24,351 nt of DNA from Coleofasciculus sp. C1-SOL-03 (GTDB lineage Bacteria > Cyanobacteriota > Cyanobacteriia > Cyanobacteriales > Coleofasciculaceae), in NCBI GenBank assembly GCA_040220555.1, contig JAVJUO010000224.1, one strand, 5' to 3'. The notes below the pieces were generated by a model. The model did no database searches. It was not told the DNA's origin and saw only the letters and a program-made list of their open reading frames with translations. Numbering within the stretch: position 1 is the stretch's first letter; each line of letters starts with the position of its first letter. Below are positions 18,964 through 22,058 of this stretch, piece after piece. The position numbers and the translations under genes were made by a program.

Positions 18964-20445
18964 TTAATCATCCCTTACAGGCAACGGAGTCTCCAGAATT
19001 TCCATCAACAACTCCAGCCGGGAAGGACGAGACAAAAGCGGAATCAGGTTGGGCAATGAGTAATAGTCACCCGCAAAGGTAAACGTATCCACCTGCACTT
19101 GCCGTTCTCGCAACTTTTGTTCAATCCAGTCGTAGGAACCGCCCACTTTGACAATGATCACATTTGGCAGCACATTCAACTCTTGACAATAGGCATCAAA
19201 AGCATTACCAAAATAGGGTGCAGTGTTTTCCCCTTGATCCGTCACCAAGATAAACTGTTCCACCAACTGCTTACGCCGACACATCGCCTCAACGCTACAG
19301 CCGATACTGGTTCCACCCCCAGCCCGGATGTGTTCAAAGGCACGCTCCCAGTGGCTGTAGAGATGCTCCTGCGGCAGATTATTCGCTAAGATATCGCCCA
19401 ATCGGGTATCACGACTCAGGTTGGCTTGGACGGGGTAGGGCATCGTGTCAAAGGCATAGACAAACAACTCCGCTTCCGTAATCCCGGAAATCAACGCAGC
19501 CAGGTGCTTACCCACCTCCAAGGCTTGATACATGGAACCCGACTTATCCACCAACAGCGCCGTGGATTTGGCGATTTTGCCGCGCTTTTTCACCTGCTCA
19601 TCCATAACGCGCTCTAACTGAGCGGTAGTGGCGAGATCTAACCCCGCTGCTTCAGCCGCAACTCGTCCCTTGAGGGCGGATACACGGCTATCCGATTGAG
19701 CCGCCGTTAACTTTTCATCAATCAACGCCTTCACCTGGGGGTGTTCCATGGCTCCCCGCGCCTTGAGAGACTTGAGGTTATTAATCACCTCTTGGGGTGT
19801 CATGGAATTAATCAAGGCGACTAATACCGTGGGCGTAATTTGCTTGACTGCGCCAATGGCAATCGTGTAAGGAATCTTATGCGCCACAATTTGCCGTGCT
19901 TGTTCCGTGGGAGTTGCTGCTTTTGCTAACTGCTTCAGCGCAAACGCCAGACTATCCTCCGGAGGTGCATCCTTAAACAGGATGGCATTCGCCCGCTCAC
20001 TCGGCTTAATGTGTAAGGTAGCGTAGAGATGCTTCATGGACTTGCGTCCCCGCAACGCCGCACGGTCAAAGAATTGGGGCTGCTTTTCCCGCTTTTGCAA
20101 ATAGCGCCGTACTGCGGTTCGGGCGGAACGAGGAACCTTCTGTTGATGCTGCTTCATGAAGTCCACAATTCGCGCCACTTGGTAAGGTGGAAACGTTTGC
20201 AGCAACATGAATCCGGCTTCTCGGTGTTCCGTTAACTGACTGGTCAACAGATTTCCGACAAAGACTTCTTTGTGGTCACGAACATCCCCTTCTTTCTGAT
20301 ACCATACACCGAGGTGTCCGTAGAAAATGGGGTCAAGTTCCACCATCATTTTGTGCAAGTCTGCAACTTTATTTAATTCTCGGTGAGGGGTGGTTAACAG
20401 ACTGTTGAGCATTTCCAAACGCAAGTCGCGTTCTGCGGTATTCAT
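18964..20445 (-). CDS. rsr: Ro60/Rsr-like protein (TROVE-like helical N-terminal domain plus C-terminal vWA domain)
   Basis: 493 aa. The C-terminal vWA has [14 protein letters not shown], then AF, GGGTSIG and ILVTDQGEN in the same order as Ro60 (VDVSASM..AFS..GGT..VFTDNE). The N-terminal half is helical-repeat ([30 protein letters not shown]). A strong SD, AAGGAGG, lies 6 nt upstream of the ATG. Flanking Y-RNA-like genes support the call. Confidence 0.65.
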
Positions 20446-20502
20446 GACAACCTCCTTTAAGAAAAGAATGGAGGCAAATGTCGCACGCTTTGACTAAAAA
20501 TA

Positions 20503-20582
20503 GTGCCGCACAAGTTCAGAAAGCTGTTGGGTTTACCGTGACAGGGTAAGTATGTAAGCTTTCCCGGTTAGGGCGCGGCGAC
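20503..20582 (-). ncRNA. Y-RNA-like unit A (short, about 80 nt; terminal helix plus one small hairpin, no tRNA-like module)
   Basis: Minus-strand RNA: GUCGCCGCGCCCUAACCGGGAAAGCUUACAUACU-UACC CUGUCAC GGUAA-ACCCAACAGCUUUCUGAACUUGUGCGGCAC. It shares the conserved 5' and 3' boxes with units B-F. UAUUUUU follows the 3' end. Confidence 0.6.
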
Positions 20583-20620
20583 AACTGCCATTTTTTGTGA
20601 GTAAAAATTGGGTTGAGTAA

Positions 20621-20745
20621 AGGGCGACCCGATCATCTGTAGGGGCGGGTTTTACCGATAACATACAAGCAAAAACTGGTAACTTTTGTAAACCCGCCCT
20701 GTTTCCAGAGTTTTTAGTGAGTGCAAGCGGGTCGCCCCTACATCC
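20621..20745. repeat. Nested palindromic repeats: outer AGGGCGACCCG...CGGGTCGCCCCT enclosing CTGTAGGGGCGGGTTTT...AAACCCGCCCTG
   Basis: Direct reading. It is inserted between Y-like units A and B. Confidence 0.75.
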
Positions 20746-20844
20746 GAACCAAAGGTGACATCTTCAAATGAGTGTGAACGATTTAACCTGTGCCAAAATT
20801 TCAAAGGTTTTGACTAACATCGGCGTTTCCCCCGTAATGTTAAA

Positions 20845-20970
20845 GCTAACGCGCAAGTCAAAAAAGCCGTTGGTTCATACACGGGAATCGAACCCGCGAC
20901 ACATCGATTTCCAGTCGATTGCTCTACCAGTGAGCTAGTATGTAAGCTTTTTCAGTTTGGGCGCGTTAGC
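20845..20970 (-). ncRNA. Y-RNA-like unit B (126 nt) with a linear-order tRNA-like module, anticodon-like loop CUGGAAA
   Basis: Minus strand: terminal helix GCUAACGCGC.../...GCGCGUUAGC. Interior: UACAUAC-UA-GCUC ACUGGUA GAGC-A-AUCGA CUGGAAA UCGAU-GUGUC-GCGGG UUCGAUU CCCGU-GUAUGAA-CCA. Confidence 0.7.
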
Positions 20971-21006
20971 GCTCTTTATTTCTTCGGGCAAAATTGAATG
21001 GATGAA

Positions 21007-21134
21007 TCACTTCGCGCAAGTTAAAAAAGCCGTGAGTCATACGCAGGATTTGAACCTGCATGATCTTGAGCCTAAATCAAGCGCCTTTTCCATTCGGCTA
21101 GTATGTAAGCTTTTTCGGTTGGGGCGCGAAGTGA
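21007..21134 (-). ncRNA. Y-RNA-like unit C (128 nt) with a linear-order tRNA-like module, anticodon-like loop UUUAGGC
   Basis: Terminal helix UCACUUCGCGC.../...GCGCGAAGUGA. Interior: UACAUAC-UA-GCC GAAUGGAAAA GGC-G-CUUGA UUUAGGC UCAAG-AUCAU-GCAGG UUCAAAU CCUGC-GUAUG. Confidence 0.7.
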
Positions 21135-21158
21135 ATTTCAACACTGGCAAATAAAGAT

Positions 21159-21280
21159 AGCACTACGCACTCTAGTTAGGACAAATGAATAAAAAATTAA
21201 ATCGCTTAATCCCTTGATGAGTAAGCCTTTTTCTTCACTATTGCCTATTGCCTATTGCCCATTGCCTGGCGCGTAGCGCT
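21159..21280 (-). ncRNA. Degenerate Y-RNA-like unit C' (no tRNA-like module; stem invaded by heptamer repeats), possibly a pseudogene
   Basis: 10-bp terminal helix AGCGCUACGC/GCGUAGUGCU. Recognisable remnants of the boxes remain (CGCGCC...GAAAAAGGCUUACUC and UUUUUUA...AACUAGAGUGCG). (GGCAAUA)n is inserted in the 5' arm and UUCAUUUGUCC in the 3' arm. Confidence 0.4.
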
Positions 21281-21287
21281 ATAAGAG

Positions 21288-21441
21288 ATATCCCGCGCAA
21301 GTTAGCAAAGCTATATTACTTGGCGCTCTACCCTTGAGCTACAGACCCCTTAAAAGTGGATCTGGTGGGATTTGAACCCACAACCTCCCGCGTTAAAAGG
21401 CGGAACAGTATGTAAGCTTCACAAGTAAGGGCGCGGGATAT
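21288..21441 (-). ncRNA. Y-RNA-like unit D (154 nt) with a permuted tRNA-like module (loop-capped acceptor stem)
   Basis: Terminal helix AUAUCCCGCGC/GCGCGGGAUAU. Interior order: UCCGC CUUUUAAC GCGGG (anticodon-like arm, 8-nt loop)-AGGUU-GUGGG UUCAAAU CCCAC (T-arm)-CAGAUCC ACUUUUAAG GGGUCUG (capped 7-bp acceptor)-UA-GCUC AAGGGUA GAGC (D-arm). Confidence 0.7.
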
Positions 21442-21524
21442 TGAATGCTATATTTTAGACGTTGGATTGAAGGAAATTTGGTAAACTTACCGTTATTTGT
21501 ACTCATCCAAAATCTGAGTGGATT

Positions 21525-21665
21525 GGGGCGATCGCGCAAGTCAAAGCAGCTTGTTTTTTTACACCTCTCCCAGAGGCGGAGAGGGCAGGAATCGAACCTA
21601 CAATCTGAGTTGAAGTCAGATGTTACCAGTTTGTAAGCTGCTTCAGTTGGGGCGCAATCGCCCCC
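21525..21665 (-). ncRNA. Y-RNA-like unit E (about 140 nt) with a permuted, partly degenerate tRNA-like module, anticodon-like loop CUUCAAC
   Basis: Terminal helix GGGGCGAUUGCGC/GCGCGAUCGCCCC. Interior: ACAAACUGGUAAC-AUCUGA CUUCAAC UCAGAU-U-GUAGG UUCGAUU CCUGC-CCUCUCC GCCUCUG GGAGAGG (capped 7-bp stem). No clear D-stem. Confidence 0.65.
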
Positions 21666-21686
21666 GTAAATCTCGCGATGTATTGA

Positions 21687-21837
21687 GTGGGAATTCGCGC
21701 AAGTTCAAAAAGCGGTTTGTGTTTCTGAGCTACTCCCCCAAACAGTGGGGGAGAAAGGATTTGAACCTTTGCCAGTTCGATTATCAATCGAATGCTCTAC
21801 CGTTTGTATGCTTTTCTAGTCAGGGCGCGAATTCCAC
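21687..21837 (-). ncRNA. Y-RNA-like unit F (151 nt) with a complete tRNA cloverleaf circularly permuted at the D-loop, anticodon-like loop UUGAUAA
   Basis: Terminal helix GUGGAAUUCGCGC/GCGCGAAUUCCCAC. Interior: GGUA-GAGC-A-UUCGA UUGAUAA UCGAA-CUGGC-AAAGG UUCAAAU CCUUU-CUCCCCC-A-CUGUU-U-GGGGGAG-UA-GCUC-AG. The GCUC/GAGC D-stem forms across the permutation point. Confidence 0.7.
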
Positions 21838-21857
21838 TAATTTCTGATGCAAATACT

Positions 21858-22058
21858 TTAACCGTAAACGGCTTCAGGACGGATGATTAGGTCGCCACTG
21901 GGACGCCGATCGACAACATAATCAGTTAAGCGATCTCGCCCTACCTCAAAATACTGGGCAATCCGTTCTTTGACAACCGAATCCTTCATCCCTACTTGAA
22001 TACCAAGCTGACGTTCTGGAATATCATAGGAACGACCTTCAAAGCGAATGTGAACCAT
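21858..22058 (-). CDS. Small conserved-looking hypothetical protein (66 aa), C-terminal Gly; possible beta-grasp/ubiquitin-like fold (speculative)
   Basis: ATG preceded by the strong SD TAGGAGGTG, 7 nt upstream. Its stop lies 20 nt before Y-like unit F on the same strand. Confidence 0.6.

Follow-up and report, generated by a model that had tools for sequence, protein, structure and literature searches.

A divergent Ro60-like gene of Coleofasciculus and the array of tRNA-mimicking handle RNAs upstream of it

Ro60 family proteins are established binders of stem-handle RNAs encoded beside them; to our knowledge, the role of bacterial Y RNAs and the reason for their tRNA mimicry are largely unexplained. 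A locus of Coleofasciculus sp. C1-SOL-03 (assembly GCA_040220555.1, contig JAVJUO010000224.1) raises the question if a protein gene and a series of structured RNA units that fall outside the usual Ro60 and Y RNA models can belong to this type of system. The locus lies in a stretch of 24,351 nt, referred to here as the window, and had been read from its letters (the original prediction) as an Rsr/Y-RNA locus with an unusually expanded set of RNA units. We find that the protein is, by family profile and predicted structure, a Ro60-fold protein, that six units share an RNA handle that recurs upstream of related genes in diverse cyanobacteria, and that the locus is probably an operon-like ribonucleoprotein (RNP) locus of the Ro60/Y RNA type, composed of a divergent protein family and an RNA class of its own.

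On the minus strand, a gene for a 66-aa protein (orf66, 22058-21858) is followed by ~1.35 kb of non-coding sequence and then by an open reading frame (ORF) of 493 aa (20445-18964), with a GGAGG Shine-Dalgarno sequence 8 nt before its start. The six units lie 55-1390 nt upstream of this Ro60-like gene on the same strand. The spacers measure 25 nt (F-E), 83 nt (E-D), 7 nt (D-C'), 22 nt (C'-C), 31 nt (C-B) and about 262 nt (B-A). The features of the locus are:

21858..22058, minus strand: orf66 (66 aa), first gene of the locus; ORF with homology in related loci
21690..21835, minus strand: unit F; handle pattern, fold, Rfam tRNA match of 31.8 bits
21525..21664, minus strand: unit E; handle pattern, fold, weak tRNA match
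21288..21441, minus strand: unit D; Rfam YrlA core match, RNAalifold, fold
21159..21280, minus strand: C', doubtful or decayed; 12-bp terminal helix, missed by the profiles
21005..21136, minus strand: unit C; exact handle pattern, Rfam tRNA match of 48.6 bits
20842..20973, minus strand: unit B; handle pattern, Rfam tRNA match of 53.9 bits
20586..20841, minus strand: B-A spacer, without a unit; nested inverted repeat
20500..20585, minus strand: unit A, minimal; exact handle pattern, covariance model R1 match of 47.3 bits
18964..20445, minus strand: Ro60-like gene (493 aa); ORF, family profile, AlphaFold2 (AF2) model

The 493-aa ORF, the 66-aa gene ~20 nt upstream of unit F and the presence of a GGUUCRAWUCC T arm in five units were all as originally predicted. 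The proposed seven units are reduced to six: F, E, D, C, B and A were found again with coordinates within ~3 nt, whereas C' was detected by neither the profiles nor the covariance model and is absent from sister loci (see below). Terminal helices of 10-13 bp had been assigned to all units, which holds for F to B; that of unit A comprises ~7-9 bp.

The Ro60-like protein family

The 493-aa protein consists of an N-terminal all-alpha region of ~290 aa and a C-terminal vWA domain with a metal ion-dependent adhesion site (MIDAS) motif, D300-x-S302-x-S304...T379...D403, the residues of which are invariant in 48 family sequences. Searched on its own against Pfam (E <= 0.1) and NCBIfam, the protein has no family match; neither TROVE (PF05731) nor vWA was hit. 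Among the 48 family members, ten match vWA_Ro60 (PF25045) and 15 match VWA_2, the window protein itself being sub-threshold. The original prediction had named a TROVE-like plus vWA protein and had counted a lack of TROVE similarity as its refutation. On the face of it, the Pfam result amounts to just that, and it is overturned by the family profile and the AF2 model described in the following.

Searched singly against the PDB, the sequence has a weak best match (E = 0.003) to a TROVE protein, Ro60 from the Thermus phage phiLo. With a profile of the 48 family members (A2) as query, the top five PDB matches are all Ro60 proteins and the HEAT-repeat (TROVE) region is covered: human Ro60 (9nen, E = 1.2e-14), Thermus phage Ro60 (9l5y/9kop, E = 1e-13, profile positions 24-393), Xenopus Ro60 (1yvp, E = 3.6e-11) and Deinococcus radiodurans Rsr (2nvo, E = 1.6e-7). 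Generic vWA domains follow below them at E = 1e-3 or worse. The AF2 model (predicted local distance difference test, pLDDT, 89.2) leads to the same family: in a Foldseek search with this predicted model as query, the 13 best PDB matches are all Ro60 chains, aligned over the full length (475-532 aligned columns) with template modelling (TM) scores of 0.57-0.71, E-values of 3e-11 to 8e-9 and 14-16% identity. Since family profile and AF2 model overturn the Pfam null, we count the 493-aa protein as a predicted Ro60-fold protein of a lineage too divergent for the TROVE model. The vWA part of the earlier description is likewise borne out by the MIDAS motif.

The family is large: a search at E <= 1e-3 finds more than 3,120 proteins, and clustering at 50% identity leaves 928 clusters. 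Among the matches listed, the top ones for which an organism is given come from cyanobacteria and bear the labels "hypothetical" or "vWA domain-containing". Two Ro60-like genes, each with ~70-76% identity to the window protein, are present in several metagenome-assembled genomes (MAGs), although a strain mixture is possible in these assemblies. The pairs are L007/L036, L016/L028, L015/L029, L010/L038 and L008/L019 (L numbers denote related loci throughout). In most of them, orf66 and an array of several units accompany one gene, and the second gene has at most a short unit.

The shared handle and its linkage to the gene

The units are held together as a class by what we term the handle. A 27-nt pattern of its 5' part, GCGCCCYRACNNNNNRAGCYTACAYAC, matches six times in the window with at most two mismatches (two each in F and E, one in B; C and A are exact), always on the minus strand and always inside a unit; 100 shuffles gave no match. 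From the ends inwards, the handle has an outer helix of 6-8 bp that is specific to each unit; a CGCGC/GCGCG helix, which is invariant; an asymmetric internal loop, likewise conserved, with CCYRAC on the 5' and ACUU on the 3' side; a second helix, ~9 bp long (..AAGC/GCUU..); and then a conserved UUACAYAC junction, with ...AAC on the 3' side. The consensus of its 5' strand reads nnnnnCGCGCCCYRACnnnnnAAGCYUACAYAC. An Rfam scan of the window yielded no family that covers the handle.

For the comparison we used 38 genomic loci from diverse filamentous cyanobacteria, including Oscillatoria, Moorena, Mastigocoleus, Waterburya, Stenomitos and Allocoleopsis; six are Coleofasciculus loci with a protein 97-98% identical to that of the window. 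An alignment of 46 distinct handles (A3) has 89.9% of its cells paired and a covariation score of 0.486; shuffles give 0.195 and slid registers no more than 0.17. The pairing of helix 1 in this alignment is partly circular, because the first set of units, collected by a regular expression, demanded a perfect terminal helix; the same demand caused many units to be missed. Helix 2 played no part in the selection of units; it is nevertheless 84.5% paired, with two-sided changes in five pairs.

The circularity was countered by nhmmer profiles of the two handle halves, built from sequence only, with explicit pairing of their matches. In 320 kb, these hidden Markov models (HMMs) match the gene strand 133 times and the other strand 3 times with the 5' half, and 127 versus 12 times with the 3' half. 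The matches pair into 114 units in the 38 loci, all upstream of the gene and on its strand, and the profiles also recover the six window units. At the outer helix positions, which lie outside the HMMs, 4.2 of 6 are paired compared with 1.9 of 6 in a shifted control. In the minimum free energy (MFE) fold of each unit both ends are paired, with z scores of -3.0 to -7.1 versus -0.51 for the B-A spacer. A covariance model with the module excised (R1) proved unsuitable: it properly found unit A only (47.3 bits, E = 2.8e-10), misaligned the long units and gave false positives on GC palindromes at 2169-2198 and 850-893. It was replaced by the half-handle profiles.

The linkage between RNA and protein gene was also approached from the RNA side. 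A search of metagenomes with the 5' handle pattern matched at least 120 stretches. A Ro60-like gene follows downstream on the same strand in 33 of the 38 stretches that offer at least 2.5 kb of room, and in 17 of 19 with at least 4 kb; most of these RNA-first loci also have orf66 on the same strand. The pattern had no match in IMG/VR viral contigs, and no handle copies occur elsewhere in the window.

The synteny of orf66, handle RNAs and Ro60-like gene is thus a strict three-way one. Comparing synteny across cyanobacteria, as suggested originally, was rewarding: the order orf66, 0-7 handle RNAs, Ro60-like gene recurs in 77 complete cyanobacterial and metagenomic loci with a median of three units. 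Six to seven units are present in nine of the 77, so that the six of the window lie at the upper end of the range. The array is therefore expanded, as predicted, when set against the ~1.3 YrlAs per genome of canonical loci, and not unique within its own family.

The modules and the surroundings of the units

Inside the handle, each unit carries a module of its own. Unit F runs from the handle through GGUAGAGC, an anticodon-like arm, the T arm and a closed acceptor-like hairpin to UAGCUCAG. In its MFE fold (z = -4.86) a long-range GAGC/GCUC stem closes three hairpins; its two half-handle matches pair, with all six outer helix positions paired, and the Rfam tRNA match of 31.8 bits covers 21754-21812. 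The orthologue in L006 has a GAGU/ACUC stem instead, which is a compensatory change. The module of unit F is a tRNA opened in its D loop. Unit E is similar in order (handle, UGGUAAC, anticodon-like arm, T arm, closed acceptor-like hairpin, A-rich tail) and is devoid of a D stem. It has a 13-bp terminal helix, a z score of -7.14 and a weak Rfam tRNA match of 18.4 bits. The E type is represented by at least 25 distinct sequences, with a conserved T arm and covariation (UA<->CG, CG<->UA) in the anticodon-like arm.

Unit D gave the one match to the core of a known Y RNA: Rfam YrlA (RF02553) scores 34.5 bits (E = 2.5e-5) at 21322-21388, aligned to model positions 24-84 of 114, with positions 1-23 and 85-114 unaligned. 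RNAalifold on 25 orthologous modules predicts 23 pairs, 13 of them with compensatory changes; the window unit itself has a z score of -4.09. The helices of the D type are an outer hairpin, a 3-bp closing stem, the T arm, a closed 7-bp acceptor-like hairpin and the D arm. We had considered the hairpin before the T arm as an anticodon arm, the tRNA being opened at 26/27. As RNAalifold sets this hairpin outside the 3-bp closing stem, that candidate was dropped and unit D was assigned the YrlA core topology.

In units B and C, the handle encloses a complete tRNA-like cloverleaf. The Rfam tRNA matches lie at 20873-20944 for B (53.9 bits, z = -3.10) and at 21038-21105 for C (48.6 bits, z = -4.28), and in C the acceptor stem CAUAC/GUAUG runs on from the handle. 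The proposed Rfam scan has thus given tRNA matches for B, C and F and a YrlA match that stays below the gathering score of 69. Unit A consists of the handle and a 5-bp hairpin and lies about 55-57 nt upstream of the start codon (z = -3.0).

C' has a 12-bp terminal helix and, at 21238-21267, a (GGCAATA)4 heptamer repeat found with Tandem Repeats Finder. Neither the half-handle HMMs nor covariance model R1 detected it; its internal boxes are degenerate and its z score is -2.42. It is absent from the six sister Coleofasciculus loci, in which the gap between D and C is ~30 nt, and only the heptamer finds matches elsewhere. We treat C' as a strain-specific decayed unit or insertion. The heptamer (AGGCAAT/GGCAATA, ~4 copies) has a second occurrence at 18513-18542, on the other strand, where an ABC ATPase ORF (17532-18587, called from a GTG start) encodes its N-terminal part. 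The B-A spacer harbours a nested inverted repeat at ~20622-20738 (GGGGCGACCCG...GGGCGGGTTT...AAACCCGCCC...CGGGTCGCCC). A 19-nt piece of it is found again at 13473-13491 and 16 nt at 14308-14323, which marks it as a small dispersed repeat; the spacer sequence varies among sister strains.

The window alone thus displays five tRNA mimics in three topologies: cloverleaf (B, C), YrlA-like core (D), and D-loop-opened or D-stem-less (F, E). Together with 158 further loci, 341 units with 292 distinct modules were collected. In some related units the tRNA-like module is replaced by an rRNA-like one, in which 33-34 nt are 91% identical to E. coli 23S rRNA at ~1910-1943 (helices H69-H71). Such modules occur at L006:2664-2830 (match at ~2695-2728), in L005 at ~3400-3582, in L022 from 2591, in L024 from 3117 and in L027 from 2131. 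BLAST of the 23S-like stretch found a match in all 5426 E. coli genomes, at a median of 7 places per genome, and among the E. coli matches listed the best ones fall in annotated 23S rRNA (rrl) genes. An Rfam E-value scan of L006 did not flag the module, whereas the BLAST search did.

A second kind of variation concerns the T loop: in several modules an insert of ~26 nt, shaped as two mini-hairpins, separates GGU from the 3' half. The sequence of the insert differs between taxa and the two-hairpin shape recurs (L001:2701-2865, L003:2767-2931 and L030:1291-1455; also L012:2946, L023:76/465 and L036:2343). The modules are otherwise orthologous; L004:3304-3444 and unit D of the window serve as comparison for the first three. 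Thirdly, the arrays of strains with 97-98% identical proteins differ via recombination at the shared handles, resulting in unit fusion or loss. Examples, at L004:3475-3595, L001:2475-2603, L009:2779-2872 and L030:2035-2135, include a C/B hybrid with its terminal helix unpaired, an F/E hybrid, a D unit without the tRNA-like core and a unit A split by a 25-nt palindrome. These changes suggest a rapidly remodelled repertoire of translation-RNA mimics.

As to the surroundings, a second 66-aa ORF (22175-22375, minus strand) lies upstream of orf66. It is conserved at 77-100% in Coleofasciculus loci only, with one weak match in L013, and probably stands outside the system. A 7-bp GC-rich hairpin (GGTGGGC-ATT-GCCCACC) is located at 18941-18957 on the minus strand. 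It begins 6 nt beyond the Ro60-like stop codon, lacks a U run and escaped the terminator scan. Further neighbours in the window encode a STAND NTPase with NB-ARC and TPR domains (1319 aa; 5120-9079, plus strand), a small vWA-TerF-like protein (12770-13375, minus), a Uma2-family endonuclease (14429-15334, plus) and tandem GNAT acetyltransferase paralogues (22660-24351, minus). None of these is kept beside the locus in distant taxa. The likeness of the vWA-TerF-like protein to the vWA domain of the Ro60-like protein is limited to the DKSGSM motif. In PADLOC, the Ro60-like protein and orf66 match no defence system.

Nature of the locus

How does this locus relate to described Ro60 systems? YrlA is defined by a GNCGAAN0-1G stem motif, a tRNA-like domain and a place <4 kb from a TROVE-annotated gene (PMC4201824); it is encoded on the strand of rsr and beside a short YrlB (PMC4201824; 10.1101/312249). 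Like Rsr/YrlA/YrlB of Salmonella Typhimurium and Mycobacterium smegmatis, the window combines a predicted ring-type Ro60 fold plus vWA/MIDAS with RNAs encoded within 2 kb on the same strand, each made of a 5'/3'-end stem and a distal module. The core of YrlA, with closing stem, T arm, closed acceptor-like hairpin and D arm, is found in unit D, and long tRNA-like RNAs coexist with a short one, here unit A, there YrlB. Unlike Rsr, the window protein is not seen by the Pfam TROVE model and is 14-16% identical to solved Ro60s. Unlike YrlA, the handle carries the GNCGAAN0-1G motif on neither strand of the A3 alignment and has its own CGCGC helix and CCYRAC/ACUU loop, and the Rfam YrlA score, confined to the core, is half the gathering score, which is reached nowhere in the window.

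Further differences are the up to seven units per locus, the additional cloverleaf and D-loop-opened topologies and the 66-aa partner gene. The YrlA feature of a tRNA-like domain without an anticodon loop applies to D only; B, C, F and E depart from it, and A is without such a domain. The rtcBA genes of the Salmonella rsr operon have no counterpart beside the Ro60-like gene in the window. Because motif, Rfam threshold and TROVE annotation fail, while synteny, stem and D core agree, the units are not members of YrlA. The locus is accordingly not a canonical Rsr/YrlA one, lacking Pfam TROVE/vWA matches, a YrlA score above gathering and the GNCGAAN0-1G motif. The original Rsr/Y-RNA assignment holds in fold, synteny and RNA architecture.

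The Rsr-Yrn1-PNPase complex (RYPER) of D. radiodurans offers a second comparison. There, too, the Y RNA gene lies upstream of the protein gene on the same strand, and a protein-binding stem is combined with an effector-binding module. Yrn1 moreover has T-arm and D-loop-like features in an orientation other than that of YrlA, which resembles the modules of the window. The handle sequence is different and the window locus is multi-unit. The Ro60 of Thermus phage phiLo (PDB 9l5y/9kop; PMC12135203) is likewise a compact protein of ~500 aa with low identity to Rsr; unlike the window protein it is of phage origin and annotated as TROVE, and the handle pattern is unmatched in IMG/VR. With non-canonical tRNA mimics (tmRNA, permuted tRNA genes, viral tRNA-like structures) the modules share the L-shape, T and D arms and a permuted order of elements. 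In the window, however, the permutation is set by the point at which a constant foreign handle joins (acceptor end, anticodon side or D loop), and there is neither a conserved CCA end nor a sign of aminoacylation. In the full-text literature searched, which did not extend to subscription-only literature, no description of the Ro60-like/handle-RNA family was found. We regard the family as a branch of the Ro60/Y RNA system, neither YrlA nor categorically new, and apparently undescribed.

We infer that the Ro60-like protein docks on the handle, since this is the sole part common to all units and sits where Y RNAs have their Ro60-binding stem (10.1101/312249). The units would be cut out of a common transcript, as judged from the short and conserved spacers and from the parallel with Salmonella rsr-yrlBA-rtcBA (PMC7790460); a polycistronic transcript fits the conserved tight spacing of orf66, units and gene. 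The unit-specific outer helices may keep each unit's own ends paired within such a multi-unit transcript. The distal end of each unit would then be a swappable module which, by analogy with Y RNAs, may tether the protein to factors recognising tRNA-shaped RNA, or gate or decoy such factors.

Several points weigh against this assignment to the Ro60/Y RNA type. Binding of the handle by the protein is deduced from position and co-occurrence only. None of the 48 family members matches Pfam TROVE (PF05731) at E <= 0.01, and the handle lacks the canonical motif just as the units miss the YrlA gathering score. The pairing of helix 1 is in part circular, as said above. Scans for sigma-70 promoters and intrinsic terminators gave nothing above shuffled expectation. 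Finally, the RNAs could have orf66, itself conserved, as their actual or as a further partner, and unit A, in a possible 5' untranslated region (UTR), could be a cis element instead of a free RNA.

The last of these points leads to the alternative that survives best, unlikely as we consider it: that the units, or at least A, are cis-acting leader elements of the Ro60-like mRNA, serving as autoregulatory operators or stabilisers. Unit A lies close to the start codon, and a short A-type unit is situated 60-150 nt before the gene in most loci with captured flank, including paralogue loci devoid of array and orf66; the spacer between A and the gene is 96-100% identical among strains. Yet a leader function hardly accounts for arrays of 2-7 units whose tRNA-like modules are elaborate and covary, and the Y RNAs of Salmonella, although encoded within the rsr operon (rsr-yrlBA-rtcBA), are free RNAs (PMC4201824; PMC7790460). 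For unit A, cis and trans roles are compatible.

Alternatively, the RNAs are real and their partner is orf66 or another factor, the Ro60-like protein being co-regulated or acting on other RNAs. orf66 is part of the system, and its linkage to the array is as tight as that of the Ro60-like gene: in 22 of the 38 genome loci it is present with 56-98% identity, always 10-80 nt upstream of the first RNA unit. It has 857 homologues, among them MC7420_4652 of Coleofasciculus chthonoplastes PCC 7420, a strain which thus has the locus as well. Those listed have, almost without exception, 66 aa and no Pfam domain, and the C-terminus ...RPEAVYG is invariant. Loci without orf66 tend to be without long units (L007, L016, L018, L032), and the handle is without the canonical Ro60-binding motif. 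On the other hand, short handle units occur with the Ro60-like gene alone. The AF2 model of orf66 (pLDDT 89.8) predicts a beta-beta-alpha-beta-beta fold, for which a Foldseek search of the PDB gave nothing significant (best E = 0.25, PB1/ubiquitin-like, TM ~0.5). A protein without recognisable RNA-binding fold thus competes with a family of established binders of adjacent stem-handle RNAs, and we regard the case for orf66 or another factor in place of the Ro60-like protein as improbable.

The units might also be genuine tRNA genes or pseudogenes, with the handle as flanking pairing of a pre-tRNA that RNase P and RNase Z remove. Units B and C exceed the gathering score of the Rfam tRNA model, and in ARAGORN they come out as tRNA-Ser(gga) at 20871-20945 and tRNA-Leu(tag) at 21034-21107 (minus strand), so that automated annotation likely lists both as tRNA genes. 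Processing of a cloverleaf is conceivable, as RNase P cuts YrlA of M. smegmatis (PMC4201824).

Here, the bodies that carry the Ser (GGA) and Leu (UAG) anticodons are of class I, with variable loops of 5 nt each, whereas bacterial tRNA-Ser and tRNA-Leu are class II. The acceptor stem, (U)ACAUAC/GUAUGA(A) with its A2-A71 mismatch, is common to all cloverleaf modules regardless of the anticodon, and the anticodon-like loops vary among strains with 97-98% identical protein (CUGGAAA, CUUGAAA and CGGUAAA in B). Short variable loops, common acceptor stem, drifting anticodon loops and embedding in the handle led us to reject B and C as bona fide tRNAs. Units D, E and F, with closed acceptor hairpins or an opened D loop, cannot be tRNAs, A has no tRNA part, and the handle is the most conserved and most covarying part of the units. 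This makes tRNA genes a very improbable explanation.

That the units are a generic dispersed repeat of filamentous cyanobacteria, similar to miniature inverted-repeat transposable elements (MITEs) or repetitive extragenic palindromic (REP) sequences and unlinked to the gene, is hardly credible: cyanobacterial genomes are rich in small repeats, of which the spacer and C' contain examples, and arrays differ between strains by unit fusion and loss, but the absence of further copies in the window, the strand bias of 133:3, compensatory covariation, the lack of viral-contig matches and the fact that an RNA-first search lands beside the gene (33 of 38), which excludes the dispersed repeat named at the outset as a refutation, all contradict it.

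If the locus is a Ro60/Y RNA-type RNP locus, as we think probable, it has several implications. Chen et al. (2014) restricted their survey to genomes with TROVE-annotated proteins and reported 355 RNAs in 254 bacteria and 22 phages, few of them cyanobacterial (PMC4201824). Surveys confined to neighbours of TROVE-annotated proteins could not see the Ro60-like family, large as it is, and automated annotation mislabels two of its modules in the window as tRNA-Ser and tRNA-Leu genes. A new conserved 66-aa partner protein is added to the Ro60/Y RNA type. The locus also represents a natural experiment, in which the handle is constant and the module varies (three tRNA topologies, a minimal form and, elsewhere, a mimic of rRNA H69-H71). 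This contrast between handle and module allows a direct test of which part binds the protein and of what the mimics recruit.

More tentatively, the system may be a modular display platform, in which a constant handle presents interchangeable mimics of translation RNAs (tRNA in three ways, H69-H71 in sister taxa, T-loop mini-hairpins) together with the divergent Ro60 ring and orf66, as a library of decoys, sensors or adaptors. Should this doubtful but attractive possibility be correct, the array would direct the ring protein to damaged or toxin-targeted tRNA or rRNA, or to the enzymes that handle them, and its repertoire of specificities would be wider than that of any Ro60/Y RNA system described.

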